DNA of 64,000 nucleotides, taken from assembly GCA_016217965.1 (NCBI GenBank), contig JACRFI010000016.1, positions 1,837 to 65,836 of the forward strand. The letters run 5' to 3'. This DNA is from Candidatus Kaiserbacteria bacterium (GTDB lineage Bacteria > Patescibacteriota > Minisyncoccia > Phycocordibacterales > UBA2100). Below the pieces are notes generated by a model. It worked only from the letters and a program-made list of their open reading frames with translations. It searched no databases and was not told the DNA's origin. Each line of letters starts with the position of its first letter. Position 1 is the stretch's first letter. Below are positions 32,564 through 51,304 of the stretch, piece by piece. The position numbers were made by a program, and so were the translations under genes.

Positions 32564-32590
32564 GCTCCGCCAGAAAGGCGGATATTTTTT
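32564..32590 (+). terminator. hairpin + T-run immediately upstream of fusA (attenuator/terminator-like)
   Basis: 'ctccgccagaaaggcggatatttttt'. Confidence 0.35.
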
Positions 32591-34740: not shown

Positions 34741-34784
34741 GTTGCGCTGGCAAAAATCCACAGTTATCGCTCAAATAGACTTGC

Positions 34785-34809
34785 ATTATCGCTCATAATG
34801 AGCGATAAT
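34785..34809. promoter_or_regulatory. perfect 12+1+12 palindrome ATTATCGCTCAT-a-ATGAGCGATAAT (operator-like) upstream of fic-like gene
   Basis: Half-site 'TTATCGCTCA' also at 34764-34774 and as 'ATGAGCGATA' overlapping the ATG at 34820. Confidence 0.5.
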
Positions 34810-34819
34810 GTGATTTAAT

Positions 34820-35875
34820 ATGAGCGATAGTAATCTCAGTCAAAGACAGGCTTCCATACTTGCCAGTATGGGACTTGATACAGACTATTCAGCAGAAAGC
34901 TTGGCGAACTTGTTCGACATTGCTCCTGCCCCAGCGACATTGCGCAGAGACATGCAAAAATTGGAATTACACGGCTACGTAACTCGGCGAGGAGAAAAAA
35001 GGGGAAGGAAATATGCAAAGACGGAACTTGGTGCCCTCTTGAGCCCCTTGGATGCACACGCGTACTTCCTCAAAGAAACAGATGTGCGCCGCGGATTAAA
35101 GACGTATCGTCACGGACTCTGGAATGCCGTACCTGAATCTCTTTTCACCACAGGTGAGCGAGCCGCATTCGCTGCTGCTACCGACATCTATCACGCGCGA
35201 TCGCGCGATATTTCCGAGGTCGTGCGTGCGAAGGAGCTTGAACGCTTCGTGATCGAGCTTTCGTGGAAATCTTCGAGGATCGAAGGCAATACGTATACGC
35301 TTCTTGATACCGAGCGCCTTCTGCGTGAGGGAGTGGAGGCACCCGGGCATGGGAAAGGCGAGGCTATGATGATTCTCAACCACAAGAAAGCGTTCCAGTA
35401 TATCTTGGAATCAAAAAATAAGCGTGAGTTTGTGAATAAGCATTTTGTCGAGGATGTGCATGGCATTCTTGTCGAGAATCTCGGCGTATCACGAGGATTC
35501 AGAAAGGGCGTTGTCGGGGTCACCGGCTCTTCGTATCGGCCTCTCGACATTCCCGCGCAACTGGAAGAAGAGACTGGCGTCTTGTGCCAGGCTGCGGCAC
35601 AGATCAAAGACGCGTATTCGCAAGCACTTCTCATGCTCGTTGGAATAAGTTATATACAGCCTTTTGAAGATGGCAATAAGCGCACCGCGCGACTCATTGC
35701 AAATGCGGTTCTCATTGCGCACGAGAAGGCGCCGCTCTCATATCGAAGCGTCGATGAAACGCTCTATCGCGAAAGTATGCTTACGTTCTACGAACAACTC
35801 TCCATCGTCCCAATGAAAAAGATATTCTCTGATCAATATCTTTTCGCCTGCGAACAGTATCTGAAAAGTTCGTAA
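34820..35875 (+). CDS. Fic/Doc-family protein with N-terminal wHTH-like region and degenerate motif [12 protein letters not shown]
   Basis: Fic/Doc core '[20 protein letters not shown]' (canonical HxFx[DE]GN[GK]R; His replaced by Gln). Confidence 0.7.
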
Positions 35876-35933
35876 AAACGGGTTTTCCGTCAAACACTCC
35901 AGTAGAATCTGCCAGCTTCAAGAGCCTGACCAT

Positions 35934-36081
35934 TGCCAAAGTGCCGCTTTCGGAGCTTTTCGGATTCACCACACAGCTTCGCTCCGCGACCGAAGGCCGC
36001 GCCGTCCCGAACCTTGAGTTCTCGCACTACGTCGTAGTACCACGTAATGTGCAGGAGGAGATAATTGCGTCTCGTAAGTAA
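35934..36081 (+). repeat. fusA 3'-end remnant copy 1 (encodes …[47 protein letters not shown])
   Basis: About 56 nt identical to 34601-34656 of resident fusA then diverged; ends with in-frame stop. Confidence 0.85.
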
Positions 36082-36129
36082 TTCCCAAATACCTGTCCCC
36101 ACCGCGGCCGCCCTGAGCGAAGTCGAAGG

Positions 36130-38412
36130 GTGGCCGCGTGTCATGATGTGTGCATGAACAAAAGCGTTGTAGCGTTTGTGGCAGTCGTCGCGTCGTTTTT
36201 CGTCCCCTTTTTCGCCTCGGCACAAGTTCCTACACCGTCTGCCGGAGGACCGTATTCTGGCGGCGTAAATCCAACCATCAGTTCCCAAAGTGGTACTTCC
36301 GTCGGCGTGTCTATCTCTTCTGTCGGGTCGAACACGTCTATTTCACAATCTTTTGTATGTCCGACGTTGATTCGCACCCTTGTCCGCGGTTCTCGAGGCG
36401 GTGATGTCGCTGGAGTACAAAATTTTCTCATCGCCCAAAAAGATTTGGCGGCAGGCAACAACACCGGCTACTTCGGTACTCTCACTGAAACGGCAGTGAA
36501 ATCGTTCCAGCGAAGAAATAATATAGTCTCAAGTGGCACACCAGGAACGACGGGGTATGGCCTCGTCGGCGCAAAGACACGTGCGGCGATCCAAAGAGCA
36601 TGTGCTGGATCAATGGCCGCACCAACCAATTCGTACTCGTCTCCATCACTAGGTTCGAATTCAGAAATAGACAAACTCCTCGCGCAGATTCAATCGCTTC
36701 AGGCGCAAATGAACCAGGAAGCTAACAAGAGCACTGGAAATTCTTCGGGGACAACGTATGTGCAAGGCTCGTACGCACAAACAAACGCGCCTGTGTATTC
36801 GGAAACGAATTATTACAATCAGGGATCATATACACCCACAGACGACCAGGTCCGACCAGCTTCACCACCGTACTATGGGGTTAACTATTTCGCATCTGGA
36901 TACGGGAATTTCCTCACGGACCAGTTCGATGTGTCAAGGACGCGCATCCAGAACGACATCGGACTCATGCAAAGCATGGGAATCAACGTCGTACGTATAA
37001 GCGTCGCCGGTTTCGCCAACGGGCTTGTGCCATGGACCTACAACCAACCGCGGGGACGAGAATATTTCGACACAGCAAATTGGGAGCTTGCCGGAAACAA
37101 CCTTGCAAAGTTGATCAAGCAATTTAAAGCAGCCCGCATAAAAGTTATTGTGGATTTTGTATCGATAAATTATTTCTTGTTCGCACCGAGCGCGACTGAA
37201 CTCGCCATCCACCCAGTAAGCCAGGCATGCAAAGACGGGTTTGCGTCCGGTTCGATGGGCGTATGGTGGCAGTGCCGGTATCCGAACAGATGGGATGATT
37301 TTGTATGGGACTATACGACCTGGGTGAACGGCATCGTGTGGCTCGTCGAGAATGATTCCGAGGCAGCGTCAAACGTCCTCTACTACGATCCGATCGGAGA
37401 ACTCCAATTTTCGGACCGGACAGGCACCGACATGAAGGCATTCGCGAACATCATTATCGCAAACAACAACATTCCGGCAGGGAAACTTGGCATATCGGTA
37501 CTTAATCCTGAATCGACCACTCCCGCCTCAATCGCGCTTCCGAACCTTAAAACTCTTCTCGATGCGGCAGGCAAAAAACTTTCGTTCATTGATGTGCATT
37601 GTTATCCTGGTATCTCTTGTGCGTTTGGTAGCCAGACTGTTGCCCAGTGGTTTACGGACGCATATACAAATGCGCGGAGATCATTTCCCGCATCTGAAAC
37701 AAAGTTTGTCGTGGGAGAATGGGGCTCCAATTATGATGGTGGAAAAGGCTTGGGCCAAGCGAATTACGATGCACAAGTTGTCAATTGGGCGAAATCCAAC
37801 GGCGATGTCACGGCGCTCGTGCACTGGAATCTCTATGATGACAATCCGAGTTACAACGAATATCACATCGGAGTTGCGCCGACGGCCGGCGTTGCGCAAG
37901 GTACACGAAATACCTATATGGTCCTCGGGACGATGCGCGGGGACTTAATCGATGGTGATTTTGAAAGTGGTATTTCGAAGTGGTTTAACGGCGGCAGTGG
38001 GTCGAACCTAAAGCAGATGCCCATCGAAGCAGTGACGGGTTCGTACTATGGACGCATGCAGGTGACGGCACCCGGACAAAATTGGTTCTGCACGCCAAAT
38101 TTCGTGCTCGCCAATGGCACGCATGTCGCGACCGGCGGTTTCATTCGGACAGCACTTGCAAATGTGACGCTTTCGACCCGATATTTCGATTCAAATTGGA
38201 AACTGATCGGGCAAGATGACATCACGCTTACACAACCAGCGGCTTGGCAGTGGCGGCAAATACAAGAGCAATCGCTGTCAAAACGCGCTACTACGTGGAC
38301 GGGTGCCCCTTATGCTGCACAGGTTTGCTTCGTTTTGAACGGTCCAGCTGGCACATCCGCTACAAATCCGCAGTATCTTGATTTGGATTCGATCACGGTG
38401 CACGATTATTAG
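36130..38412 (+). CDS. secreted peptidoglycan-binding-domain protein with GH5-like TIM-barrel glycoside hydrolase domain
   Basis: Probable true start ATG 36154 (MNKSVVAF…, signal peptide); PG_binding_1-like 'GDVAGVQNFLIAQKDL…GYFGTLTETAVKSFQ'; 'GINVVRISV' and 'VVGEWGSNYDGG' GH5-like strands. Confidence 0.6.
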   Translation: MAACHDVCMNKSVVAFVAVVASFFVPFFASAQVPTPSAGGPYSGGVNPTISSQSGTSVGVSISSVGSNTSISQSFVCPTLIRTLVRGSRGGDVAGVQNFLIAQKDLAAGNNTGYFGTLTETAVKSFQRRNNIVSSGTPGTTGYGLVGAKTRAAIQRACAGSMAAPTNSYSSPSLGSNSEIDKLLAQIQSLQAQMNQEANKSTGNSSGTTYVQGSYAQTNAPVYSETNYYNQGSYTPTDDQVRPASPPYYGVNYFASGYGNFLTDQFDVSRTRIQNDIGLMQSMGINVVRISVAGFANGLVPWTYNQPRGREYFDTANWELAGNNLAKLIKQFKAARIKVIVDFVSINYFLFAPSATELAIHPVSQACKDGFASGSMGVWWQCRYPNRWDDFVWDYTTWVNGIVWLVENDSEAASNVLYYDPIGELQFSDRTGTDMKAFANIIIANNNIPAGKLGISVLNPESTTPASIALPNLKTLLDAAGKKLSFIDVHCYPGISCAFGSQTVAQWFTDAYTNARRSFPASETKFVVGEWGSNYDGGKGLGQANYDAQVVNWAKSNGDVTALVHWNLYDDNPSYNEYHIGVAPTAGVAQGTRNTYMVLGTMRGDLIDGDFESGISKWFNGGSGSNLKQMPIEAVTGSYYGRMQVTAPGQNWFCTPNFVLANGTHVATGGFIRTALANVTLSTRYFDSNWKLIGQDDITLTQPAAWQWRQIQEQSLSKRATTWTGAPYAAQVCFVLNGPAGTSATNPQYLDLDSITVHDY

Positions 38413-38419
38413 TCTTCGC

Positions 38420-38485
38420 TTCGTTCTCGCACTATGCGATTGTCCCAAAAACGTTGCAGATGAAGTGATCGCCTCGCGCAAATAG
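38420..38485 (+). repeat. fusA 3'-end remnant copy 2 (…FSHYAIVPKNVADEVIASRK*, 1-nt frameshift)
   Basis: Matches last about 22 codons of fusA. Confidence 0.75.
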
Positions 38486-38554
38486 AAAACGTCACATGGC
38501 ATAGCCTGAACAATGTCCACAGGCGTCTCCGCTGCCCCATTGAAAAAAGCAAGA

Positions 38555-38562
38555 GGGGGGGG
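38555..38562 (+). repeat. G8 homopolymer tract 13-20 nt upstream of ATG 38575
   Basis: 'aagaGGGGGGGGtagcattgggacATG'. Confidence 0.8.
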
Positions 38563-38574
38563 TAGCATTGGGAC

Positions 38575-39858
38575 ATGAAAAACATCCCACGGGTTGGTGT
38601 GCTTATCAGTGCTATTCTCCTTGCGCCTGCGTTCGCGGCAGCTCAAGACGCGCTCGGAAGTCCTATGCCTTCAATGGGTCCGGGAATAATTTGCCAAGCG
38701 GAAATGAATGCCGCCATTGCGGTCGGTCTGCAAAATAGGGAAAAGGCCGAGGTAAAGGCGCTCGATGCGTGCCTAAAAAATAACGCGTCGACACTACCCA
38801 TGCCCTCAATGACCTCTGAGGCAAGCGACTCTGGCAGCGTAACATCGGGTATTACCCCGAACACGAATGGCAGCGGCGCTTCATGCCCCAAAATTCTTCG
38901 TACGCTTTTCGTCGGCAGCACTGGGGATGACGTGGTGGCATTGCAGGTATTCCTTATTGCGCAAGGCGATCTTGCCGCAGGCAATACCACCGGCTACTTT
39001 GGCGTTCTTACGGAAGCGGCGGTAAAAGCATTTCAGTCGGCGCATGGTATAGAGAACGCTGGCATGGTGGGTCCGAAGACTCGCGCGGCGATCGCGCAAA
39101 TATGCGGCGGTACCGTTTCCACGAACACCCCTTCCTCTAGCGGCGGTTCAACGGGCAATCAATCGCTCATTGATTCGCTTCTACAGCAGATAAAAGTTCT
39201 GCAGGAGCAGATAAAGAATATCTCAGGGAACACAAACACAAACACAAATACGAATACAACGTCAACCAACACCAATACGACATCAACCAATATCAACACA
39301 ACTTCTTCGACTGCCGCGACTCCGCAAACTTTCGACTACATGGCGTCATTCCATTCCGGCCCGCAATCTGGGGGCGACCAGAGCCTGGCGCCGTACTTCG
39401 GCCAGAACCCGTCGGGACCATGGTGGTATGGGTATGCGGATTCCGTAACCGGCGCGACGAAGTTCATGTCGTGGGACGGGACCGTCCCCTCATGGATCGG
39501 CGGCTATGGAGGATTCCCGCGTCTCTACAACTGGGGTGGGTACGTCTACGGCTCGTCGGCAATAATCGTTTGGGTGGCACCGCGTGCGGGTACCGTCACG
39601 ATAGCCGGAAGTGTCTCGCGACAAGGGATTGGCGGGGCTGATGCGACGTGCTCAGGCGCGACGCCGATCGTCGCGTATGTCTATCAGGATGGAAAGGCTT
39701 TGTGGTCGGCGAGCATGATGCCGGGAGATGCTGGCAAAGCGTATTCACTCTCCGGCACAGTGAATCAGGGCAGCAACGTGTCGTTCATCATGCAGCCGGC
39801 AGGTGCAAGCCCGGCCTGCAACATCGTGTACTGGAATCCGACTGTCGTGCTTAAATAA
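38575..39858 (+). CDS. secreted peptidoglycan-binding-domain protein with (TN)n linker
   Basis: Signal peptide 'MKNIPRVGVLISAILLAPAFAAA', PG_binding_1-like 'DDVVALQVFLIAQGDL…GYFGVLTEAAVKAFQ', 'NTNTNTNTNTTSTNTNTTSTN' linker, C-terminal beta domain. Confidence 0.65.
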   Translation: MKNIPRVGVLISAILLAPAFAAAQDALGSPMPSMGPGIICQAEMNAAIAVGLQNREKAEVKALDACLKNNASTLPMPSMTSEASDSGSVTSGITPNTNGSGASCPKILRTLFVGSTGDDVVALQVFLIAQGDLAAGNTTGYFGVLTEAAVKAFQSAHGIENAGMVGPKTRAAIAQICGGTVSTNTPSSSGGSTGNQSLIDSLLQQIKVLQEQIKNISGNTNTNTNTNTTSTNTNTTSTNINTTSSTAATPQTFDYMASFHSGPQSGGDQSLAPYFGQNPSGPWWYGYADSVTGATKFMSWDGTVPSWIGGYGGFPRLYNWGGYVYGSSAIIVWVAPRAGTVTIAGSVSRQGIGGADATCSGATPIVAYVYQDGKALWSASMMPGDAGKAYSLSGTVNQGSNVSFIMQPAGASPACNIVYWNPTVVLK

Positions 39859-39879
39859 AAAGTTCGCATACCCACTAAC

Positions 39880-39945
39880 CCAAAGTTTGATGCTGGGTGC
39901 TGAATTTGGAATTCTCTCACTACGCTATCGTCCCCAGAAATGCCT
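39880..39945 (+). repeat. fusA 3'-end remnant copy 3 (internally deleted; …EFSHYAIVPRN…)
   Basis: 'ccaaagt' junction plus 'gaattctctcactacgctatcgtccccagaaatg'. Confidence 0.65.
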
Positions 39946-40044
39946 GCCCCGTTAGAACTTTAGTTTCTAATGGGGTTGCTAACTAAGTGATAGGCGCGAG
40001 GACGCTCGTATTGACGAATTGGCTAATTGGGCTACTATTGGCGC

Positions 40045-40314
40045 ATGAGCAAGATAACCATGCCTACATTTGCGGCGAGCGAGGCGAAGAATAACTTCGG
40101 GAGGCTTATCGATGCCGCGCAGCGCTCGCCTGTCGCGATCAAGCGGCGCGGCCGCTCCGTTGCGTTCGTCATCTCGCCGTCAGACATGGAGACGATTGAG
40201 GATCTATGGCTGGGTATGCAAGCGCATAAAGCGATGCGGCGAGGTAAATTCTTGAGCGCTGAGGAAACGAAGAAATATATGGACGGTGTGCTGAAGCACC
40301 ATGCTCGACGTTAG
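40045..40314 (+). CDS. Phd/YefM-family antitoxin
   Basis: 'MPTFAASEAKNNFGRLIDAAQRSPVAIKRRGRSVAFVISPSDMETIEDL' YefM fold signature; overlaps toxin gene by 14 nt. Confidence 0.7.
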   Translation: MSKITMPTFAASEAKNNFGRLIDAAQRSPVAIKRRGRSVAFVISPSDMETIEDLWLGMQAHKAMRRGKFLSAEETKKYMDGVLKHHARR

Positions 40315-40576
40315 GATACTCGACGAGGCGCAGGAAATCCTGGATGCGCTATCAGAAAAACATCGGCATCAAATTGTCAAAAAGATCGCACTGCTCGCGC
40401 AGCAGCCATATCACCCGCGTTCGAAACAGTTGGAAGGATATGCGCCGCTTCGACGCATGTCTTCTGGAGAATATCGCATTGTGTATTTCATTGAGGGCAA
40501 AGTTCTGAAAGTTCCGCTTATCGATAAGCGAGGGGATAACAAAGTATACCGACGACTTAAGCAGTTATTCGGATGA
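40301..40576 (+). CDS. RelE/ParE-family toxin
   Basis: 91 aa, 'PLRRMSSGEYRIVYFIEGKVLKV' RelE/ParE C-terminal core. Confidence 0.75.
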   Translation: MLDVRILDEAQEILDALSEKHRHQIVKKIALLAQQPYHPRSKQLEGYAPLRRMSSGEYRIVYFIEGKVLKVPLIDKRGDNKVYRRLKQLFG

Positions 40577-40605
40577 TAAATTGCTTTGAACGTCGTTATC
40601 GAAAA

Positions 40606-40773
40606 AAAGCCTGCTCTCCGAAATGTTCGGATTTACAACACAATTACGGTCGTTGACGGAGGGAAGATCTGTCCCAAACCTCGAGTTTTCTCACTACCCC
40701 AGTAGGTGATTGTACTCAATCAGCTGTTGTCCCTCGAAATGTTGCGGATGAAGTTATTGCGGCGAGGAAATAG
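40606..40773 (+). repeat. fusA 3'-end remnant copy 4 (…[26 protein letters not shown]-[28-bp insert]-VVPRNVADEVIAARK*)
   Basis: Translated similarity to EF-G C-terminus ending in in-frame TAG. Confidence 0.8.
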
Positions 40774-40785
40774 AAAAATCCTCTC

Positions 40786-40836
40786 CACACACTGCCGCGC
40801 TTAATGCGCGGCAGTGTGTCATGATTACCGCATTAC
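40786..40836 (+). promoter_or_regulatory. 14-bp perfect hairpin (CACACACTGCCGCGC-ttaat-GCGCGGCAGTGTGT) followed by GTGTCATGATTACCGCATTAC box
   Basis: Same architecture at 20008-20048, 36103-36147, 42595-42636 upstream of paralogous genes. Confidence 0.55.
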
Positions 40837-42577
40837 ACATCACCCATCTCTATTCATGCTAAAAAAAGTCGCATTCAGCAGCATCGGATTACTCCTCCTA
40901 ATCTCTCCGTTCGCAGCATCTGCAGATCTCCTTAGCGACCTCCAAGCGCAGATACAAGCACTTCTTGCGCAGATTGCGGCATTGCAGGGGACATCAATGA
41001 TCCCTGACTCGGACACTCCGACAGAGCATCCGACATCATCATGCCCACATCTGACAGTCGCTCTCCAACGGGGCAGTCGCGATGCAAATACGGGAGGACA
41101 AGTCTCAGAACTTCAAATATTTCTCGCAAATCGTTACGGTCTCAACGACGATGATATCGTGAGCGGATTCTTCGGCGCAATGACAGAGAAATACGTCATC
41201 AAATTCCAACAAGAACAAGGACTTCCCGTGTTCGGCCTCGTAGGTCCTATGACCAGGGCGAAGATCGCAGAGGTGTGCGGGGGCATCATCTCTCCGTCGA
41301 ATGCCGCATCCGAGGCAAACCCGGTACTTGTCTTTCCGCCTCGTAGAATCACGAGCGACACAAACAGCTTCTCCAACAGCTTCTCCGCGTCGCCGATGTC
41401 AGGAAGTGCGCCACTCACCGTAACGTTCTCCATGACTCAATACGGGGCGAGATCCCTACTGATAGATTTCGGAGACGGTGCGGTACAAAAAACCGACGAC
41501 TCTTGCCTTGTCGGCCCGGATTGTAAAGAACCGTACGTACGTTCGCACACTTACATCTCACCAGGCACGTATATTGTCCGACTCTCAAATGCATCCGTCT
41601 GCGACGCGCCACCCGGGGTACTGTGTTCACTCGCCCCCGATCAGATTGTCGGTACGGTGACGATCACCGTCACGGACGGGACCCGCAAATGTGGTGTAAA
41701 TTCATTTAAAGTAGTGAACCAATGTGGCACAAGCGAATACAGAAATGCGTACTTCCAGTGTTATGACGGGTATGAGCAGACCATCGGTGAGAGCAGTTCG
41801 TGCAAACCGCCCTCGGTATGGGAAGAATATGCCCGCGATGCGTGTGCCAAACATTGTTCGAACACTGCAAGCAGTATTACCGTCACATCACCCAATGGCG
41901 GAGAGCAGATCGAAATCGGACAGCCACATAAAATTACTTGGAAACAAGTCGGGCTCTCGAATGTATCCATTGCACTGTACAGAGACGATCAAGTGAAACA
42001 GTGGATTGCGCGAGATATTAGCTTGGAGAAAGATGCCGTTGACACATATGCGTACGTCTGGACACCGGCGCAAACCGACACTAACATTAATGCGTTCACA
42101 ATCTACATCACCGGCCCAAAAGCCGACGGCACAGGCTCCATCGACGACAAAAGTGACGCTCCATTCAGTTTTGCCAGTGATGCAAGCGGAGTGTGTCAAG
42201 TTGTTGACCTCTACGCCACGCAAGTCCCGGGGTATGTCTACTCTGATCTCTTTATGGTCGTGCGCGGACTGCCGACAGGATCTGGTCAGGTTAGTATCAC
42301 CGGAGCAGATTCATGGAACAATTTGATGTTCTCTTCCCAGGGGCTTGATTCTGCGGGAAATCTCCTCTTGCAAGCAAATCAAACGATTAATTCGACGGGT
42401 GTCTCGTATATTCTTGAGCGCGAGAATGCCATCACGCCAATTTCCTACGGCGGTGTATCAATATCGTGTCAATCTATTTCTGGCACGACCGCATCCGCAC
42501 AGAGTACGCAATTAGCATCAGCACTCGTTGCACTCGAATCAGCCCTCAAAGCAATGCTGAAATTGTTGGGGCAATAG
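40814..42577 (+). CDS. secreted peptidoglycan-binding-domain protein with PKD-like domains
   Basis: Probable true start ATG 40856 (MLKKVAFSS… signal peptide); coiled coil; 'GQVSELQIFLANRYGL…GFFGAMTEKYVIKFQ'; 'FGDGAVQKTDDSC' PKD-like. Confidence 0.65.
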   Translation: MCHDYRITHHPSLFMLKKVAFSSIGLLLLISPFAASADLLSDLQAQIQALLAQIAALQGTSMIPDSDTPTEHPTSSCPHLTVALQRGSRDANTGGQVSELQIFLANRYGLNDDDIVSGFFGAMTEKYVIKFQQEQGLPVFGLVGPMTRAKIAEVCGGIISPSNAASEANPVLVFPPRRITSDTNSFSNSFSASPMSGSAPLTVTFSMTQYGARSLLIDFGDGAVQKTDDSCLVGPDCKEPYVRSHTYISPGTYIVRLSNASVCDAPPGVLCSLAPDQIVGTVTITVTDGTRKCGVNSFKVVNQCGTSEYRNAYFQCYDGYEQTIGESSSCKPPSVWEEYARDACAKHCSNTASSITVTSPNGGEQIEIGQPHKITWKQVGLSNVSIALYRDDQVKQWIARDISLEKDAVDTYAYVWTPAQTDTNINAFTIYITGPKADGTGSIDDKSDAPFSFASDASGVCQVVDLYATQVPGYVYSDLFMVVRGLPTGSGQVSITGADSWNNLMFSSQGLDSAGNLLLQANQTINSTGVSYILERENAITPISYGGVSISCQSISGTTASAQSTQLASALVALESALKAMLKLLGQ

Positions 42578-42649
42578 TTTCAATGGGATCTATCCACACA
42601 AAGCTGCCTCGATCGAGGCGGCTTTGTGTCATGATGAGGGTATAACGGC

Positions 42650-43276
42650 ATGGCTTCTTTCATCATGTTTAAAAAGGTAGCGTGTGGCCTCGGATTATTT
42701 CTGCTCGTTACCCCGCTCGCTGCATCAGCGGCTCCGGTGGACGAACTCTACCTGGAATCACAATTGCACGTGTCAGAGATACTCGCTCTTCAAGTACGTT
42801 TGAACGCATTATTGACGCAGCTTGCGATATTGCAGGGACAACAGACCAACCAAGTGCCACTGCATCCAACCACGTGCCCCAAGCTCACTGTTTCTTTTTC
42901 ATTCGGTGCGTACGGCAATGATGTCTTAGAACTCCAGCGATATTTGGTCACCAACGGCTATTTAACCGCAGATTCAGTCACAGGGTTTTTTGGCGATACA
43001 ACCGATGCCGCTGTCAGGCGTTTTCAACTGGACCGAGGCATTGTGCATGGAGGAACGACGCGAACGACCGGGATCGGGATAGTGGGCCCTGCGACGAGGT
43101 TGGCGATCGCGACAAGTTGCAGTTATGGAACAGACGGCAATTACGCAACATCAACCATCGCCGCTTCGACATCGCCATCAACTACGAATACGGATCTAGT
43201 GTCGCAACTCACGATCATCTCGCAACAATTGCAGATATTGCGCGAACAAGTTCTTAACCTGCAGGCGCAGCATTGA
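42650..43276 (+). CDS. secreted peptidoglycan-binding-domain protein (short paralog)
   Basis: Signal peptide, 'NDVLELQRYLVTNGYL…GFFGDTTDAAVRRFQ', C-terminal coiled coil; RBS 'gaggg' 9 nt upstream. Confidence 0.65.
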   Translation: MASFIMFKKVACGLGLFLLVTPLAASAAPVDELYLESQLHVSEILALQVRLNALLTQLAILQGQQTNQVPLHPTTCPKLTVSFSFGAYGNDVLELQRYLVTNGYLTADSVTGFFGDTTDAAVRRFQLDRGIVHGGTTRTTGIGIVGPATRLAIATSCSYGTDGNYATSTIAASTSPSTTNTDLVSQLTIISQQLQILREQVLNLQAQH

Positions 43277-43336
43277 AAAGAGTATCCCCACTGCAGCCGC
43301 CCAATAGGGCAGTCGCGTTCGTTTTGGCTGTACACT

Positions 43337-44857
43337 GTGTCCATGCTTTCGCGCGCACGTGCATTTGGGAGGATGATGCTTCGTATCCTGTTACTCTTAG
43401 TAATATTTGGCGTGTTCGCGCCGAACTTTACATTCGCGCAGTCCTGTTCCATTTCAATTTCGCCCCAGACGGGCGTTGCGGGTTCGGGAAGGACGTTGTA
43501 TTGGTCCGTCAGCGATTATGTCGGGACGCTCGACATCAGTGGTATCGGACGTGTGGTTACAACATGTTATGCATCGGGAGAGGGTAACGGCGGTTGTACC
43601 ATGCCCCCAGTTTCCGGATCTCTCGGTATTTCGCCGTCCTATTCCACAACCTACACTGGTACAGCAGTAGACGTCTGGGGGACGGATACCTACTGCTCCG
43701 ACACCGCATACGCCACGCCCGCATACTCCCAGGCTAGTTACTACGCCCAATCCTACTACCAATCCTCATACTACAGCCCCGCCTCCTGCTCCGTCTCCCT
43801 CTCGCCAAACCCCAAATCATACGCCGGCAGCGCCACGCTCTCATGGTCCTCCTCGCAGGCACACTACTGGGTCTACATCAATAACGTCGGCTATGTGGGA
43901 GGGAGCGGCTCCATTTCAGTCTCACCATCATCAAGCACCGACTATTCCTGCTACGCGAATGGCTACGGCGGCTCTGACGGCTGGCACAGCTACACACTCA
44001 CGGTGAATCCGCCTGCCAACTGTTCCTTCAACGGCTCGACAGTCAATCACGGCAGTTCAGTCACGGCATACCAAGCAGCCACCGTCCCATACGGGCAGTC
44101 ATGTGCTTCACAATCACAATCACGCAGCTGCTCAAACGGCACGCTCTCGGGCACATACCAGTACGAAAGCTGTACCGTCGACAACCCAGCGCCTACTTGC
44201 TCTATTGCTGTCGCACCAACCACCATCACATCAGGAGAGTCTTCAACACTCACCTGGTCCTCATCAAACGCTACGACTTGCACCGGCACCAATTTCTCAA
44301 CTGGTGGTGCGACATCAGGCTCCACATCGGTCTCTCCTTCATCTAGCACCAACTACTCTGCAAGTTGCACTGGTACTGGTGGCACGACAGCATGCACTGA
44401 CACGAGCAGTGGAGGAGGGGGCGACACCACAGCCACTCTGTCAGTTGCTTGCACCGAAAGCTGGGCATGCACCGGTTCTCCAAGCAACACCATCACACAC
44501 ACCTTAGCGAATTGCTCGACAGAAACCGTTGACACCTGCGTCACGCCAGAGTTTTGTACCACAGGCTCCGCCACCTGCCTCTACAACGCGGTCTCAGGCT
44601 CCATCAGCGCTTCCCCCCGCTTGGTACGATCCGGCGCCACCACACAAGTCTCGTGGAGCACTGACGATGCGTCCTCGTGCACCGTCACAGGCAATGGAGA
44701 CACGTGGACCGGCACCACAGGCTCACAAACATCAAGCCCGATCACCGAACTCACCACCTACACCATCCATTGTGATGATGGTGATCCTGACAGTACACAA
44801 GATGATTTCACAGACAGGGTGATTGTGGTGAGGTTGCCGGGGTGGTTGGAGTTATAA
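43337..44857 (+). CDS. secreted Cys-rich Ig-like repeat surface protein (paralog of 47073 gene)
   Basis: Signal peptide, repeated 'C…SLSPNPK…TLSWSS…', Ser/Thr/Gly-rich; last about 360 aa about 85-90% identical to 47073 product; C-terminal 'VRLPGWLEL'. Confidence 0.6.
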   Translation: MSMLSRARAFGRMMLRILLLLVIFGVFAPNFTFAQSCSISISPQTGVAGSGRTLYWSVSDYVGTLDISGIGRVVTTCYASGEGNGGCTMPPVSGSLGISPSYSTTYTGTAVDVWGTDTYCSDTAYATPAYSQASYYAQSYYQSSYYSPASCSVSLSPNPKSYAGSATLSWSSSQAHYWVYINNVGYVGGSGSISVSPSSSTDYSCYANGYGGSDGWHSYTLTVNPPANCSFNGSTVNHGSSVTAYQAATVPYGQSCASQSQSRSCSNGTLSGTYQYESCTVDNPAPTCSIAVAPTTITSGESSTLTWSSSNATTCTGTNFSTGGATSGSTSVSPSSSTNYSASCTGTGGTTACTDTSSGGGGDTTATLSVACTESWACTGSPSNTITHTLANCSTETVDTCVTPEFCTTGSATCLYNAVSGSISASPRLVRSGATTQVSWSTDDASSCTVTGNGDTWTGTTGSQTSSPITELTTYTIHCDDGDPDSTQDDFTDRVIVVRLPGWLEL

Positions 44858-45405
44858 ATGCTTATTCAATTAAAAAATGTATGGACCACATGTCACTTCG
44901 AACGCAGATAGGGCTTCTCGCGCTTCTCCTTGCATGCGTTTTTATACTGTACTTATTTACAAAAGGCGGCTCGCGCGAACTTGGCAATGCAAGCAATACT
45001 TCTCAACGACAGATGGAAAGTTCTCTATCGGAGAGCATTCGGGAGGGGAAGGTGCCGCTTCCGGAATTTACGGACGAGACCAAGGCGAAACTCGATGCAA
45101 GCAAAGGCTTCCAACACTTGGTGTCCTACACGGATGGTGGCTTCGAACCCAGGGCGCTCGCGATGTCACGAGGCGAAAGTGTACGATTTACGAATAATTC
45201 TTCAATGAATCTTTGGATAGCTGCAGATGGATCAGAGGTGCAGATATATCCGCGTACGAAAGAAGTGTGTGGTTCAAGTGATCTCGATTCTTGTGAGCCA
45301 TTCATGCCGCAAGATTTTTGGGAGTTCACATTCGAGAATGCGGGGACATGGGGCATCGTGAATAATTTGGACAAAGCGAAGAGCGGGATAATCATCGTCG
45401 AATAG
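44842..45405 (+). CDS. membrane-anchored protein with cupredoxin-like domain (hypothetical)
   Basis: TM 'IGLLALLLACVFILYLF' (likely start about 44890); beta-sandwich-like 'RGESVRFTNNSS…GTWGIVNN…GIIIV'. Confidence 0.4.
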   Translation: MVGVINAYSIKKCMDHMSLRTQIGLLALLLACVFILYLFTKGGSRELGNASNTSQRQMESSLSESIREGKVPLPEFTDETKAKLDASKGFQHLVSYTDGGFEPRALAMSRGESVRFTNNSSMNLWIAADGSEVQIYPRTKEVCGSSDLDSCEPFMPQDFWEFTFENAGTWGIVNNLDKAKSGIIIVE

Positions 45406-45411
45406 GCTTCG

Positions 45412-46938
45412 CTACGTAGCACGTGCCGCTTTCTTGAACCACGAGAGCAGCCTCTCCACATCTGCCTTCCGATCCTCCGAACCGAGGACGATGATAGCGA
45501 CAGTTGCAGTTTCGTTGTGCGTAAGAACTTCAAAAATAGTTACCATTGTTTCGCGCGCTTCGTCCGTGTAGCCCGTCTTGCCACCAAGGAAGCCTTCTTT
45601 GCCGGCGAACACATTGAAGTTATTCAGCGTGTAATTGCGGCCGCTCTCCGCGCGTATCTCTTTGGTTTTCTCACGGCTGATATTGAGAATGTACGATTGG
45701 TTGTCATGAATATAGCGGGTGAGAAGAAAGAGGTCGTTTGCGGTAGACGTATTGTGGGGCGAAATGCCTGATGGGTCTTCGAGCGATGTGTTCTTCATCC
45801 CTATCGCTTGTGCCTTATCATTCATCCAGCGCAGAAAATTATCCGCTCCGTAATATCGCGACAGTGCGTACGCGACGGAATTATTCGATTCCATGAGAAG
45901 GGGATACAGAAGATTGCCGACTGCGAACGAATCATTTGCGGCGATAGAGCCTGGCGTGCCCTCTGTTTGCCTGCGGTCTTCTGCCGTAATGGCTAGTGTG
46001 CGGTCGTACTGTATTGTCTCATTCGCGACGAGCGCGGTGAGGAGTTTTGAGAGCGATGCGATCGCGCGCGGCCCATCAGTATCCCGCTCGGCGAAAACCT
46101 GGCCGCTATGTACATCGGCGATGAGAAATGCTCTTGCCGAGATTTTCGGCAGTGGCACGCCGCTCAAATTTATGACCTGCTCGTCCCTCGCGGGATCGAG
46201 GGAACCACCTGCGGTGAGCGTAGACGACTTGTCCTGAGTGGAGTCGAAGGAACTGTTCCACACAAAAATCGGCGTTCCGTTCGCAGCGAAATCGAATATC
46301 GCGGTCGCATCTTCGTTTGAGAGCCGGATGCAGCCGCCGGAATATCCTTCGGATACGGGCGTGCCATTCGGGTAGTACGGCCAGCCGTGGATGAAAAAGT
46401 TGCCGAAGAATTGCATTGAGTGAGGCATATGCACTTCACCGATTGATGAAAAATGATCATCCTCTTTCGATTGGATTTTATAGAGACCGGTCGGCGTTTC
46501 CCAGCGACTGCCGCGTTTGCCTTTGGAAAGAATGTCATATTCGGCTACGGCCTCGCCATGTTCAAAAAGGTACAGCTTCATCGCGGAAAGATCCGCTCCG
46601 ATGAGCCGCTCGTGCGCCATCTTCAGCGTTTCTATTGAAGCGGTTCCGATGGTGCGCGTTGCCAACTTGCGTTCATATTCGTTCAGTTCCTGCAAAAGCT
46701 GCACTTCGCCGACAGAGCGCATCGTGCGTTTCGCTTTTATTTCCTCAATTTGCAGCTCCAGGTTTGCTATTTCAGGGTTAAGAGCGGCGGCGATCACCAT
46801 CTCGGAACCGAACGCGGTGCCAAAGTGCGCGATAGAAACCAACACAAGGAAGCCCGCGGTGAATTTCGTAATAAATCGGAGTCCGTGCGAATCGTACGAA
46901 ATGCCCGCTTCCGAATCGCGCTCTTTTGAATCGAACAT
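45412..46938 (-). CDS. bifunctional L,D-transpeptidase (YkuD) / D-Ala-D-Ala carboxypeptidase (S11) fusion
   Basis: YkuD catalytic 'HGWPYYPNGTPVSEGYSGGCIRL'; S11 'ASLSKLLTA' SxxK motif; N-terminal membrane anchor. Confidence 0.75.
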   Translation of the reverse strand: MFDSKERDSEAGISYDSHGLRFITKFTAGFLVLVSIAHFGTAFGSEMVIAAALNPEIANLELQIEEIKAKRTMRSVGEVQLLQELNEYERKLATRTIGTASIETLKMAHERLIGADLSAMKLYLFEHGEAVAEYDILSKGKRGSRWETPTGLYKIQSKEDDHFSSIGEVHMPHSMQFFGNFFIHGWPYYPNGTPVSEGYSGGCIRLSNEDATAIFDFAANGTPIFVWNSSFDSTQDKSSTLTAGGSLDPARDEQVINLSGVPLPKISARAFLIADVHSGQVFAERDTDGPRAIASLSKLLTALVANETIQYDRTLAITAEDRRQTEGTPGSIAANDSFAVGNLLYPLLMESNNSVAYALSRYYGADNFLRWMNDKAQAIGMKNTSLEDPSGISPHNTSTANDLFLLTRYIHDNQSYILNISREKTKEIRAESGRNYTLNNFNVFAGKEGFLGGKTGYTDEARETMVTIFEVLTHNETATVAIIVLGSEDRKADVERLLSWFKKAARAT

Positions 46939-47072
46939 GTATCACTATTGTAATGGACAAAAGTTCACGCAGTCTGTCCTTTTCCCCACCACAAGGCCGC
47001 ATGTTTCGTACACTCAAGCGTACCTGGGGATAGCGCACCGACGCAGCCCATCCCGACGCTATACTTTCTCAT

Positions 47073-48680
47073 ATGTCGGGGACGCGTTCCTATGTCGTCG
47101 TTCTTACGTTTGTGGCGCTCTCTATCGCCCCGTATTTTGCGCACGCTGCGTCGCTGCCGGGCGGTGTCTTCAACCTCATCATGCGCTCCGACGGCCTGTG
47201 CATGGACGTGTACGCCAACCAGGCCGTGAGCGGCCAAAACATCGACAACTGGCACTGCAACGGTACGACAGCTCAGACGTTCCGCGCCGAGTCGCTCGGC
47301 GGCGATGTGTACCGCATCATCAACACAAATTCCGGCATGTGCGTGGACGTCTACGGAAACGACACCAGTGAAGGAGCAGATGTGGTCCAAGCGTGGTGCA
47401 ATGGGTCCAGCGCGCAATCGTTCCAGGCTGCTGATGCTGGCAGCGGGTATGTGTATCTCGTCAACACCAATAGCGGCAAGTGCGTAGGATTCGGCGGCAC
47501 GTTCCAGTGGCAAAATACCGACCAAGGCAATTGGCAGTGGGTTCCGGACGTGCGGATGTATTCGTGTAATGGCGCCGCCGACCGGCAGTGGTATCCGGCA
47601 GCGCCCGCATCGTGTTCCATCTCCCTCTCACCGAATCCGAAAGACTATGCCGCAGCGGCGACGCTTTCCTGGTCAAGCTCATACGCAAACTCCTGGCTCT
47701 ACATCAATAACGTGGGATACGTGGGGGCTTCCGGCGCAGTTACCGTCGCGCCAACTTCAAATACCGACTATTCATGCGTCGCCTACGGTTCCGGCGGCAG
47801 CGACGGCTGGCACAGCGCAATCTTGTACGTGAATGCTCCTTCCAATTGCACCGCGCCGTGGGGAAGCGCAGTCTCGCACGGCTCGTCTGTCATCGCATAC
47901 CAAGCAGCAACGGTGCCATATGGTTCCTTGTGCGTTTCCCAAACACGCTCTTGTTCTAACGGAAGCCTCAGCGACTCATACGAGTATCAATCCTGCTCCG
48001 TGGATAATCCTGCACCCACCTGCTCCATCTCTGTCGCTCCAACCACAATTACCTCAGGAGAATCATCAACACTCACCTGGTCCTCATCAAATGCCACGAC
48101 CTGTACCGGTACCAATTTCTCCACAGGAGGCGCCACCTCCGGCTCGACATCAGTATCTCCCTCATCCAGCACCAACTACTCTGCAAGTTGCACAGGTACC
48201 GGGGGCACAACAGCATGCACTGACACGAGCAGTGGAGGAGGAGGCGACACCACCGCCACTCTGTCAGTTGCATGCACTGAAAGTTGGGCTTGCACCGGCG
48301 CAGGCGGAAGCACCATCACACACACCTTAGCGAATTGCTCAACAGAAACCATCGACACCTGCGTCAGCCCTGAGTTCTGCACCACAGGCTCTGCCCTCTG
48401 CCTCTACGACGCCGTCACCGGTTCCATCACTGCTTCCCCCCGCCTCGTCACCTCAGGCAAGACGACAACCGTCTCCTGGTCTACTGACGATGCCGTCTCC
48501 TGCACTGTCACAGGAAACGGAGACACCTGGATTGGTACCTCAGGCTCACAGACATCAAGCCCCATCACCGAACTCACTACGTACACCATCCGCTGTGATG
48601 ATGGCGACCCTGATACCACACAAGACGATTTCACAGACAAAGTGCATATCGTGCGGTTGCCGGGGTGGTTGGAGTTATAA
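47073..48680 (+). CDS. secreted ricin-B-lectin + Ig-like repeat surface protein
   Basis: Signal peptide; beta-trefoil repeats with Q-x-W ('AQTF','AQSF','RQWY') and 'CMDVY/CVDVY'; C-terminal about 360 aa paralogous to 43337 gene. Confidence 0.7.
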   Translation: MSGTRSYVVVLTFVALSIAPYFAHAASLPGGVFNLIMRSDGLCMDVYANQAVSGQNIDNWHCNGTTAQTFRAESLGGDVYRIINTNSGMCVDVYGNDTSEGADVVQAWCNGSSAQSFQAADAGSGYVYLVNTNSGKCVGFGGTFQWQNTDQGNWQWVPDVRMYSCNGAADRQWYPAAPASCSISLSPNPKDYAAAATLSWSSSYANSWLYINNVGYVGASGAVTVAPTSNTDYSCVAYGSGGSDGWHSAILYVNAPSNCTAPWGSAVSHGSSVIAYQAATVPYGSLCVSQTRSCSNGSLSDSYEYQSCSVDNPAPTCSISVAPTTITSGESSTLTWSSSNATTCTGTNFSTGGATSGSTSVSPSSSTNYSASCTGTGGTTACTDTSSGGGGDTTATLSVACTESWACTGAGGSTITHTLANCSTETIDTCVSPEFCTTGSALCLYDAVTGSITASPRLVTSGKTTTVSWSTDDAVSCTVTGNGDTWIGTSGSQTSSPITELTTYTIRCDDGDPDTTQDDFTDKVHIVRLPGWLEL

Positions 48681-48920
48681 CTCAAGCCGCACAAAGAATT
48701 TCGATGTAGCGAGAATCGTGAGAATTTTACTTGCACTCCAGAAGTCTTTTGATACTATGCCGGTACGCACGCTCTGTGCGTATTTCTTTGCCTAATTTCT
48801 TCTGTGTGGAGTAGCGACCCACCATCAAGCAGGGAGGGGCGGCAAGAAACTACCGGAGCACCGAGGCGTTCGCCTCACTCGCGTTGGCAATTATCATTAC
48901 TAGTTAATTTATTTTTTGCG

Positions 48921-48953
48921 GCTGCTAGCTACAAGCTACCAGCTACAAGCTAA
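48921..48953 (+). promoter_or_regulatory. CTAGCT/AGCTAC-type repeat block upstream of tuf
   Basis: 'gctgctagctacaagctaccagctacaagcta'; related blocks at 5505-5530, 6749-6775, 7481-7512, 25884-25912, 50161-50205. Confidence 0.4.
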
Positions 48954-48958
48954 TCTAT

Positions 48959-50158
<1,200 letters not shown>

Positions 50159-50160: not shown

Positions 50161-50205
50161 TAGCTTCTAGCTTCTAGCTTCTAGCTTCTAGGTGCTAGCT
50201 GCTAG
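50161..50205 (+). repeat. tandem octamer (CTTCTAGC)x4 plus degenerate units directly after tuf stop
   Basis: 'tagcttctagcttctagcttctagcttctaggtgctagctgctag'. Confidence 0.85.
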
Positions 50206-50298: not shown

Positions 50299-50529
50299 AT
50301 GACTCAAAAAGTTCTTAAGGTCGGCTCTTCGGCAGCGGTCACGATACCAAAGAAGTCTCTTGCCGAACTCGGCCTCAAGATCGGCGATCGCGTGACTTTG
50401 ACCGTCAATAGGGAGCATAAGAGTATCGTGGTTCAGCCATCTGTGTCTGTGGACGCCGAGACGGTGCAATGGGCGCGAGATTTCATCGAAAAATATCGCT
50501 CTGCGCTCGAGGCGTTGGCGCGTCAGTAG
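50299..50529 (+). CDS. AbrB/MazE/SpoVT-type antitoxin (Phd-equivalent for Doc)
   Basis: 'KVLKVGSSAAVTIPKKSLAELGLKIGDRVTL' swapped-hairpin motif; 2-nt spacing to toxin gene. Confidence 0.65.
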   Translation: MTQKVLKVGSSAAVTIPKKSLAELGLKIGDRVTLTVNREHKSIVVQPSVSVDAETVQWARDFIEKYRSALEALARQ

Positions 50530-50530
50530 C

Positions 50531-50932
50531 ATGCGATACCTCTCAGCGGAGGAATTACTAGTCCTCCATGCGCTCGTTGTTGATGAGACAGGCGGTTCGC
50601 ATGGCGTGCGTGATACGGCGCTTCTCGCGTCAATTGCGCACAAGCCGCAAGCAAAATTTGATGGGAAAGATCTATACCCAACTATTTTTCTGAAAGCGGC
50701 GATACTTCTCGAAGCGGTTGCTAATTACCACGTTTTTATCGACGGGAACAAACGTACGTCGTTCATTGCGGCTGCGAGATTCTTGTTCGTGAATGGATAT
50801 AACATTACGGCAGACAACGTAGATGTCGAGAAGATTGTAGTTGCTGTCGCAATGAAGAAGTTAGCGATTGGGGAGCTTGCGGAATGGCTTAAAGAAAATA
50901 GTTCGAGTATCTACATCCATGCCAAAAAATGA
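50531..50932 (+). CDS. doc: Doc (death-on-curing) Fic-family toxin
   Basis: 'HVFIDGNKRTSF' Doc motif HxFxDGNKR. Confidence 0.8.
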   Translation: MRYLSAEELLVLHALVVDETGGSHGVRDTALLASIAHKPQAKFDGKDLYPTIFLKAAILLEAVANYHVFIDGNKRTSFIAAARFLFVNGYNITADNVDVEKIVVAVAMKKLAIGELAEWLKENSSSIYIHAKK

Positions 50933-51304
50933 TGCCGGACACGTTATCTCTCGGCACTCATCGAGAGTTGGGTTTTCAACACCGTTATGCACTCATTTTC
51001 CACAGAATCGCCTCGATTTGCTTCATCTAAGCATAATCTGTGGTTGATATAGTCACTCTTGTAACGCTTTACGGCGCTACAGCGAAGAAGGAAACCTTTC
51101 GCAAGTCAGGATTCCTTCTCTCGCTTCCCAGATTCGCTAGATGGCGCTTACGTCTAGCCACTCGGGAGATTTGGATCAGAGAGTCAAGTGAACGCGTAGA
51201 GGGATGTCGAAGAGATTCGGAATCCCAGATACCAGAGCCACGGTGTTAAGCAGCCTATTCATCTCTGGAATCGCAGCTAAACCGAATCGTAATGATCCAT
51301 AGCA

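Follow-up and report, generated by a model that had tools for sequence, protein, structure and literature searches.

Displaced fusA 3′ ends mark a probable gene-capture hotspot between fusA and tuf in a Candidatus Kaiserbacteria genome

It was proposed in a preliminary description of a 64,000-nt stretch of contig JACRFI010000016.1 (the whole stretch is called the window hereafter) that a single 14-kb accessory island splits the conserved fusA-tuf junction of the str operon. The window belongs to a metagenome-assembled genome (MAG), built from short reads, of a Candidatus Kaiserbacteria bacterium, a member of the Patescibacteria or candidate phyla radiation (CPR). We found that rpsL-rpsG-fusA and tuf are indeed split by accessory genes: from the fusA end at position 34740 to the tuf start at 48959 lies a gap of 14,218 nt with 11 accessory genes. 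The interval is not a single island; at least five modules make it up, set apart from each other by displaced 3′ ends of fusA. We propose that it is a gene-capture hotspot that has grown by successive insertions at the fusA 3′ end, in a homology-anchored and integrase-free manner, and we give this combined reading a probability of about 0.6. Taken separately, a history of serial insertion with replacement of the gene end is likely, and the homology-anchored, integrase-free mechanism is tentative, at slightly less than even odds.

The displaced gene ends and their order can be read directly in the DNA. Repeat finding and tblastn with the C-terminus of elongation factor G (EF-G) located four to five pseudo-copies of the fusA 3′ end in the gap, of which R1 to R4 are described here; all four lie on the plus strand, and each remnant begins 11-60 nt past the stop codon of a complete cargo gene. 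The working fusA gene (32599-34740, plus strand; 713 aa, Pfam), whose protein is identical to one annotated in a Candidatus Kaiserbacteria MAG, is followed by the cargo of module 1, a 351-aa helix-turn-helix (HTH)-Fic protein (34820-35875; Pfam Fic and HTH_DeoR), and then by R1 (35935-36081), which keeps 49 codons in frame and ends in TAA (tblastn E = 2e-25). Module 2 carries PG760, a 752-aa secreted PG_binding_1 protein (36154-38412; Pfam) whose C-terminal domain has no family, and is closed by R2 (38424-38485), a piece of about 21 codons that lacks 1 nt within a stretch of A residues, seen by tblastn as PKNVADEVIASRK plus stop and FSHYAIVPK. Module 3 carries PG427, a 427-aa secreted PG_binding_1 protein (38575-39858; Pfam E = 2e-13), trailed by R3 (39897-39986), in which 15 + 3 codons (VLNLEFSHYAIVPRN and VAN plus stop) are split by a 33-nt palindrome at 39943-39975. 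In module 4 a Phd/YefM antitoxin and a ParE/RelE-like toxin (40060-40576; Pfam and the gene calls of a Logan contig) precede R4 (40596-40773), which comprises about 56 codons and is interrupted by 25 inserted nt at 40698-40722 (tblastn E = 1.5e-15). These four proximal modules are compact, at 0.8-2.4 kb each, and all are on the plus strand.

The differences between the remnants and the working gene end are biased toward synonymous changes. R1 differs from the current end by 14 synonymous and 7 non-synonymous codons and R4 by 19 and 9, and in a remnant found in a relative (locus L171) 6/6 differences fall at third positions, as counted by eye. This bias suggests that the copies diverged as working gene ends. 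R1 shares with fusA an identity block of 67 nt with 3 differences (34594-34660, plus strand), inside which 55 nt are perfectly repeated (34606-34660 equals 35947-36001). The fusA-specific left flank is TCCAAAGTCCCAC (34594-34606), the tail of the Fic module reads …GACCATTGCCAAAGTGCCGC, the R1-specific right arm starts with CCGTCCCGAACCTTGAG at 36002, and the current fusA right arm is GTGTTCCCAACGTCGAA. Of the 29 base differences between R1 and the current end, 3 fall within the leading 67 nt and 26 within the final 80 nt (Fisher p = 1.6e-5, uncorrected, for the best of about 110 split points). When compared with the functional fusA end of the related locus L001, the right arm of R1 shows 80% identity and the current right arm of the window 69%. 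Among the EF-G C-termini of 120 clade sequences the alleles GRA…NVA(D/E)EVIASRK and GRG…NVQEEI(I/V)ASRK dominate; the R1 tail is of the Q type, matching L001 and the Q-type alleles of the clade, and the current fusA has an A-type tail on a GRG background. The simplest reading of these sequences is that R1 is the former native fusA end and that the present end came with the Fic module, in which case the last 27 codons of fusA (about 34661-34740) were probably imported.

Remnants of fusA are also present in L003, L006, L023 and L171, which are MAGs from other studies. In L003, 8/9 differences are confined to the last 19 of 114 nt, next to a 95-nt block with 1 difference, and the L171 remnant is identical to its gene end through the stop codon plus 18 nt. 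The left ends of the remnants vary, lying at codons -58, -49, -38, -29, -26, -21 and -16, and no single fixed crossover core was found among R1, R2, R3, R4, L003, L171 and L006, since their starts and identity blocks differ. The two proteins that flank the L171 remnant, PG582 and PG742, are 30% identical, and the remnant between them is 93% identical to the gene end at the nucleotide level. Simple local duplication is excluded by cargo that is far more diverged than the remnants, by the unrelated C-termini of the PG proteins and by the lack of nearby paralogs of the Fic and toxin-antitoxin genes. The same end-remnant search downstream of tuf, rpsL and rpsG gave nothing credible in 45-73 loci.

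Comparison with relatives, all of which are Patescibacteria of Paceibacteria type as judged from EF-G, shows what the site looks like when it is empty. In L174/L175, whose EF-G is 91% identical, a spacer of 214 nt separates fusA from tuf and contains a promoter-like sequence as well as a canonical terminator. The upstream order is that of the window over more than 10 kb (RecJ, DUF975, RNase H, ComEC, Sod, metallo-beta-lactamase, M50, rpsL, rpsG, fusA). The short gap and the shared upstream synteny together indicate that the window region is an insertion, as the preliminary description had supposed; it had taken the same genes in close relatives with a lack of remnant repeats as the sign of an ancestral arrangement, and such repeats are present in the form of fusA 3′ ends. 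Other relatives show intermediate or different states. A contig designated P0024 has one PG_binding_1 gene between fusA and tuf, L171 has two with the fusA remnant between them, and L173 (jgi Ga0268264_10000209) has at least 9.5 kb of unrelated surface proteins at the site and 8 kb of signalling genes between rpsG and fusA. In L172 (jgi Ga0172278_1813; EF-G 92% identical) fusA lies among unrelated genes, with rpsJ 9 kb upstream and rpsL, rpsG and tuf not nearby. Relatives at 91-92% EF-G identity thus carry 0, 1, 2 or many unrelated genes at the fusA-tuf site.

In a wider search, the fusA-tuf gap in CPR loci ranged from 83 nt to 6.6 kb (31 loci with tuf in range), and 6 more loci had no tuf within 10 kb; non-CPR loci from the same search had gaps of mostly 34-390 nt with three larger exceptions. 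The junction is therefore not conserved in this lineage, contrary to the earlier assumption: gap sizes in the Paceibacteria extend from 83 nt to more than 10 kb, and in some relatives at 91-92% identity fusA and tuf are not neighbors at all. The clade shows an unusually fluid synteny of marker genes. The gap open reading frames (ORFs) of the relatives belong most often to PG_binding_1, and genes of this family lie between fusA and tuf in L001, L003, L011, L029, L031, L171 and the P0024 contig. This recurrence indicates that part of the content is typical of the lineage and not foreign.

A comparable arrangement was observed at rpsJ. This gene (52603-52971, plus strand), a short ORF found by comparison with L174, is followed by AbiEii (52978-53646, minus strand), a SWIM-domain protein (53855-54586, minus strand) and a displaced rpsJ 3′ end holding the last ~49 codons (54616-54763, plus strand). 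The two rpsJ copies are 90% identical at the nucleotide level, with 14/19 base differences at third codon positions; counted over the last 50 codons, the remnant shows 11 synonymous and 4 non-synonymous codon differences. The rpsJ arrangement is the same type of scar as at fusA, with cargo on the opposite strand. The tuf-rpsJ interval (50299-52726) has also been replaced, as it holds MazE-Doc and an rve transposase in the window versus a 366-aa protein and PrkA in L174. The two scars and this replacement leave the core translation genes isolated among accessory modules from 34.7 to 54.8 kb. MazE-Doc sits behind a near-consensus promoter (TTGACA-16-TAGAAT). The transposase, an IS481-like rve (DDE) enzyme at 51479-52726, lies 1.3 kb beyond tuf and is the only mobility gene nearby, and its ORF runs into the rpsJ start.

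The gap does not stand out by composition. GC is flat at about 0.51 over the gap, and GC3 and tetranucleotide distance are inside the range of the rest of the window; plots of GC, codon usage and tetranucleotides, which had been suggested as a signal of insertion, were run and gave no deviation in the gap. Native-like composition is expected if the exchange took place among relatives. By Pfam, no integrase, transposase, tyrosine recombinase or serine recombinase was found on the gap ORFs, and no phage or conjugation genes in the gap; Phage_integrase was absent from the scanned ORFs across the 64 kb (a few smaller ORFs were outside the scan), and there was no integrase or transposase among 34 selected larger gap ORFs of 10 relatives. 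The gap contains no tRNA gene. An Rfam search of the window produced no match that reached the gathering score, and no credible candidate between 34.6 and 43.4 kb, and promoter and terminator scans showed no enrichment over shuffles.

The sequences show recurrent events at the 3′ termini of highly conserved coding regions, in each of which the gene was restored and its former end displaced. The proposed history can be outlined as follows. Incoming DNA would have brought its own fusA end together with compact cargo under a promoter of its own, either a single gene or the two genes of a toxin-antitoxin pair. A crossover within the last ~60 codons of fusA would have joined the resident gene body to the incoming end, so that EF-G would have stayed intact, and the previous fusA end would have been displaced downstream of the cargo as a dead remnant. 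If time runs in this direction, newer modules would be nearer to fusA, giving the order Fic, PG760, PG427 and Phd/ParE from the newest, and the distal 8 kb from PG587 to the ricin lectin would be an older, lineage-typical surface and wall cluster that was also duplicated internally. With respect to donors and enzymes, RecA-type recombination anchored in conserved genes may have acted on DNA of relatives taken up by a type IV pilus/ComEC competence machinery. It might have taken the form of homology-facilitated illegitimate recombination (HFIR) or of single-crossover integration of a circularised fragment, and no element-encoded integrase would be needed. We infer a homology anchor and not a dedicated att site from the variable junctions, the two target genes, the lack of a recombinase with the cargo and the occurrence of the Fic unit elsewhere without fusA. 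The cargo would supply addiction or defence modules and, among secreted proteins, a variable set that binds peptidoglycan, acts as lectins or remodels the wall.

Genes for DNA uptake and processing lie upstream of the str cluster within 25 kb (7518-10948, 22102-23790 and 26832-30242) and encode a PilB-like ATPase, a PilC-like platform protein, RecJ and ComEC; the metallo-beta-lactamase part of ComEC is a separate ORF with Sod between, an order that also occurs in L174/L175. No recA was found within the window. Saccharibacteria are reported to be naturally transformable. Two adjacent genes downstream of the pilus genes share a 39-nt stretch with 87% identity near their 5′ ends (13247-13285 and 13917-13955), which may encode a prepilin-like N-terminus. 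It has been reported that transfers in Patescibacteria occur mostly within the phylum with competence as a likely route, and that tuf, rpsL and ribosomal protein genes are among the frequently transferred genes (PMC12455944).

Three other explanations were considered in addition to serial homology-anchored insertion. It is very improbable that the structure is an assembly or binning artefact in which strain variants or unrelated contigs were joined via the repeated fusA ends. The MAG was built from short reads, and the contigs of an independent k=31 Logan assembly (run SRR12113407) do break, although only in internal repeats, namely the 55-nt perfect repeat and a 1.1-kb repeat of 77% identity; the break at the fusA end falls inside the 34594-34660 identity block. 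However, this assembly reproduces 34631-35976, 35972-41412 and 44389-48239 at 100% identity, and each fusA fragment is on the same contig as a cargo gene, so that the remnants are on real molecules and a chimera cannot have created them. A chimera at the junctions, to which the preliminary description had drawn attention, is thus not borne out. Four further MAGs, obtained in other studies, have this architecture too, L001 (an additional MAG, EF-G 87% identical) independently links fusA to homologs of the distal genes, and GC and codon usage are uniform. It is also improbable that the region is an ancestral tandem PG_binding_1 array, in which a unit of fusA 3′ end, hairpin and PG gene was duplicated locally, gene conversion kept the remnants similar to fusA, and relatives lost genes. 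Such an array would account for the 5′ hairpin/promoter element and the N-terminal module (37-46% identity) shared by the PG genes, for PG_binding_1 genes at this site in the seven relatives named above, for the native composition and for the local duplication that produced o506 and Ricin535 in the distal block. It fits poorly with the Fic and Phd/ParE genes, which lack nearby paralogs yet are each trailed by their own remnant, with the unrelated C-terminal domains of the PG proteins, and with the wholly different contents at 91-92% EF-G identity, including an empty site with terminator and promoter-like sequence. In addition, the PG 5′ element precedes a paralog 14 kb away that has no fusA remnant.

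Classical site-specific integrative elements (islands, integrative mobilizable elements or cassettes) might instead have used an att site in the fusA 3′ end, supplied a substitute end and accreted in tandem, with the integrase acting in trans or since lost. We consider this unlikely as well. Direct repeats of the target-gene 3′ end do flank each module, and in R1, L003 and L171 a near-identical block is joined to a diverged arm, as in attL/attR; the frame of R1 is intact, so that precise excision would restore a working fusA, and in the graph of the k=31 assembly the Fic module closes on itself as a loop of 1341 bp. A further point in favor of this explanation is a 33-43-nt GC-clamped palindrome (CCCCGTTAGAAC…GTTTCTAATGGGG) that splits the displaced fusA end in the window (39943-39975), in L006 (12169-12211) and in L023 (about 4523-4562). 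Its position is identical in R3, L006 and L023, after the G of the Val codon in Asn-Val-Ala, and its removal restores the frame in all three. The palindrome arms of the window and L006 share 12 + 16 identical bases, although the EF-G proteins are only 70% identical, and palindromes of a similar kind (CCCCGT(T)AG…CTA(A)CGGGG) are present at other places in the CPR loci L134, L126, L082 and L088. Against integrative elements, neither the 14 kb nor the 34 gap ORFs of the relatives contain a tyrosine or serine recombinase, the left ends of the remnants and the identity blocks differ in position from case to case, the same scar is found at rpsJ with cargo on the opposite strand, and Fic homologs elsewhere have no adjoining fusA fragment. 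Moreover, no viral contig carried an isolated fusA 3′ fragment: a scan with a profile of the EF-G C-terminus, in which attP-like fragments were sought, gave only host fusA-tuf stretches. A more unusual possibility, which we regard as doubtful, is a dedicated and reversible cassette platform at the 3′ ends of essential translation genes (fusA, rpsJ), with circular cassettes, a gene-end fragment as the attachment site and an unrecognised recombinase. The recombinase might act at the palindrome in the Asn-Val codons seen in three genomes, and the intact R1 frame and the closed Fic loop would then reflect ongoing excision and integration. If true, the platform would resemble an integron but lack IntI and attC, and it would serve to diversify genes for surface and defence functions beside highly expressed genes.

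Several points weigh against the homology-anchored, integrase-free reading that we prefer. The palindrome at the same nucleotide in three genomes hints at a site-specific process, resembling repetitive extragenic palindromes (REP) or att sites, that our model does not explain, and it is the main reason why we still give the cassette-platform possibility some weight. The k=31 Logan contigs fit a tandem fusA-Fic-R1 arrangement and an empty site plus a 1341-bp circle alike. No donor locus was found, and the Fic homologs in 80 metagenome loci had no adjoining fusA or fusA fragments. The combination of identity block and diverged arm in R1, L003 and L171 resembles attL/attR, and later gene conversion is an equally possible source of it; gene conversion from the working gene could also yield a synonymous-only pattern, which would weaken the dating. 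Finally, classical HFIR usually deletes recipient DNA and does not duplicate it.

The distal block of the gap was also analyzed. It comprises the secreted PG_binding_1 proteins PG587 (40856-42577) and PG208 (42650-43276), the gene pair o506 and o187 (43337-45405), which encodes a secreted protein of 506 aa, rich in Ser, Thr and Cys, and a protein of 187 aa with a membrane anchor, a fusion of L,D-transpeptidase (YkuD) and D-Ala-D-Ala carboxypeptidase (Peptidase_S11) on the minus strand (45412-46938; Pfam and NCBIfam), and the ricin-B lectin protein Ricin535 (47073-48680); all but the fusion are on the plus strand, and PG587, PG208 and Ricin535 were identified by Pfam. The Fic-like protein, the Phd plus ParE/RelE-like pair and the wall enzyme fusion named in the preliminary description were thus all recovered. 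Four PG-binding paralogs instead of the five described are in the gap, the fifth being at 20070-21677 outside it. As for the label of lectin/Ig-like surface proteins, the lectin is supported by the ricin-B match in Pfam, and "Ig-like" would apply only through weak PKD/Ig (PKD/Big_7) matches beside PG_binding_1 in PG587. By inspection, 8/11 gap proteins start with a signal peptide or a membrane helix at the N-terminus.

In the Fic protein, QPFEDGNKR stands at the place of the catalytic HPFx[D/E]GNGR motif, a change of His to Gln, and the matches of the protein in PDB are FICD-like. Metagenome homologs in the hundreds are retrieved with the pattern QPFEDGNK, which suggests that the family has conserved this substitution. 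Members of the family with about 50% identity are widespread (metagenome scan, 80 loci). The Fic gene unit (34777-35873), including a palindromic operator, is homologous to a unit in L081 (Fic 73% identical), where it occurs without fusA context. The operator-like inverted repeat, I1 (TTATCGCTCAT/ATGAGCGATAA; 34765-34829, plus strand; fold z-score -5.3), precedes the Fic gene and overlaps its start codon, and the same palindrome stands before the L081 Fic gene. A role of Fic as a dedicated fusA-targeting cassette was ruled out because no fusA was found beside Fic in the 80 loci.

The PG proteins have in common an N-terminal anchor module with 37-46% identity, and their C-terminal domains are unrelated. 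PG760 is an exact match to an NCBI "peptidoglycan-binding protein". Its closest homolog (52%), in L168 (ena ERZ25039548 contig_18307), adjoins AbiEii, Replic_Relax, DUF3768, Ku and a UvrD-like helicase, a region that looks like a mobile element or plasmid remnant. In sequence searches of Pfam, NCBIfam and PDB, no family was found for the C-terminal domains of PG760 and PG427 or for o506, and o187 gave only weak cupredoxin-like matches. Four PG genes also share a 5′ element that consists of a strong hairpin with a variable stem and a conserved CACAC/GTGTG base, followed by TGTGTCATGAT(T/G)A.CGCATTAC; the CGCATTAC end could be an extended -10 promoter. Hairpins H1 (36095-36147, 5′ of PG760) and H2 (40787-40825, 5′ of PG587; fold z-score -8.1) both carry the TGTGTCATGAT motif, and H3 (42596-42635) is 5′ of PG208; all three are on the plus strand. 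The same element (20005-20050) precedes the PG paralog outside the gap, where there is no fusA remnant. H1-H3 were therefore rejected as parts of the fusA junctions and belong to the PG gene units.

The C-terminal 357 aa of Ricin535 are 82% identical to o506, and the corresponding DNA repeat (43774-44857 and 47599-48680) is 1.1 kb long and 77% identical; o506 and Ricin535 are a genuine local duplication inside the distal block. Both proteins terminate in …VRLPGWLEL. A tblastx indication that the repeat runs beyond the stop codons proved spurious on closer comparison. L001 carries two o506/o187-like pairs, each with a large protein and then a small membrane protein, and the genes match at 33-44% identity. 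In the minus-strand polypeptide, the YkuD and Peptidase_S11 domains both follow one N-terminal membrane helix. The domains of the gap proteins bind or remodel peptidoglycan or bind sugars, and in an episymbiotic CPR cell the set would make up a variable surface and wall-interaction repertoire. Phd/ParE and Fic in the gap, together with MazE-Doc and AbiEii nearby, are predicted to be addiction or defence modules.

Upstream of fusA, rpsL (31237-31653; Pfam Ribosom_S12_S23) and rpsG (31657-32118; Pfam Ribosomal_S7), both on the plus strand, form the conserved part of the str cluster and are syntenic with L171, L173 and L174. The rpsG-fusA interval is variable among relatives too, up to 8 kb; in the window it holds a 105-aa ORF (32165-32482) with a hydrophobic N-terminal segment and no family match, and a terminator-like hairpin (32566-32582) ahead of fusA. 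On the other side, tuf (EF-Tu; 48959-50158, plus strand; Pfam) is 93% identical to the L171 tuf and is followed by a canonical terminator; canonical U-tract terminators are present both there and ahead of fusA. Short tandem heptamers flank tuf, AGCTACA-like directly before it (48926-48950) and AGCTTCT x4 directly after it (50163-50195), and a related 33-nt stretch (7480-7512) occurs in inverted orientation upstream of the PilB-like gene.

The locus may be compared with known systems of gene acquisition. Most integration hotspots flanked by core genes lack recognisable self-mobile elements, and homologous recombination within the flanking regions is considered to drive their turnover (Oliveira et al., 2017; PMC5635113). 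The fusA-tuf site resembles these hotspots in its core-gene flanks, its rapid turnover among close relatives and its accessory, surface and defence content. Gene sets between the conserved flanks fusA and tuf differ and include an empty state, yet fusA itself has moved in L172. Unlike the published hotspots, insertions here accumulate and do not replace each other, a displaced 3′ end of the flanking gene is left behind, which places the crossover inside the core coding end, and the setting is a translation cluster (str/S10) in a CPR bacterium. Some elements insert at the 3′ terminus of a gene and bring a replacement for it, as phage 21 and e14 do in icd of E. coli and as islands that target tRNA or tmRNA genes do. 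In the fusA case, too, the gene is kept functional by the incoming 3′ end and the old end forms a partial direct repeat of about 150 nt at the far side with largely synonymous differences, but the modules of 0.8-2.4 kb hold single genes, lack integrase, phage and conjugation genes, have variable junctions and target both fusA and rpsJ. Tandem integrative elements at one att site are also known from the accretion of integrative and conjugative elements and cis-mobilizable elements in Streptococcus thermophilus. Modules are likewise stacked at one att site in the tandem arrays of Salmonella genomic island 1 (SGI1; PMC2297512). The serial modules separated by copies of an attachment repeat are alike, but those arrays need a known integrase and a fixed core, neither of which was seen here. 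Integron arrays share with this locus the compact, mostly single-gene and co-oriented modules next to a fixed entry point, which would also be proximal here, and hairpins near the junctions; they differ in having IntI, whereas here the boundary is a piece of an essential gene, modules have their own promoters and the rpsJ cargo is on the opposite strand. The attC consensus RYYYAAC...GTTRRRY, in attC order, was not found in H1-H3 or the R3 palindrome by inspection without an attC model.

During natural transformation, one homologous anchor is enough to trap foreign DNA (PMC3240628). When transformation in S. pneumoniae strikes an essential gene, the products favored by selection retain a functional copy next to the disrupted one (PMC3784515). 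The events described in these HFIR and merodiploidy reports (PMC3240628; PMC3784515) are insertion-deletions or duplications of 100-900 kb, versus serial gene-end duplications of 40-170 nt here. A literature search on islands at the fusA end or on fusA-tuf synteny in CPR bacteria found nothing relevant. The kinds of system involved, core-gene hotspots and integration with a substitute 3′ end, are known; as far as our searches show, the stacked, integrase-free form at fusA and rpsJ in a CPR bacterium is undescribed. To our knowledge, serially stacked gene-end duplications of 40-170 nt have not been described before.

The locus would represent a readable stack of gene gains, each time-stamped by a displaced end of an essential gene and without visible mobile-element machinery. 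CPR bacteria have tiny genomes, few recognisable mobile elements and mostly no genetics, and the locus bears on the way in which they gain surface proteins presumed to serve host attachment. Our results suggest that conserved translation genes serve as landing pads for DNA of relatives, which would explain why tuf, rpsL and ribosomal genes are listed as "transferred". A pseudo-copy of a gene end a few kb downstream of the gene may also be used as a searchable signature of recent gene gain in uncultured bacteria, and the "universal" marker synteny rpsL-rpsG-fusA-tuf-rpsJ should not be assumed in this group.

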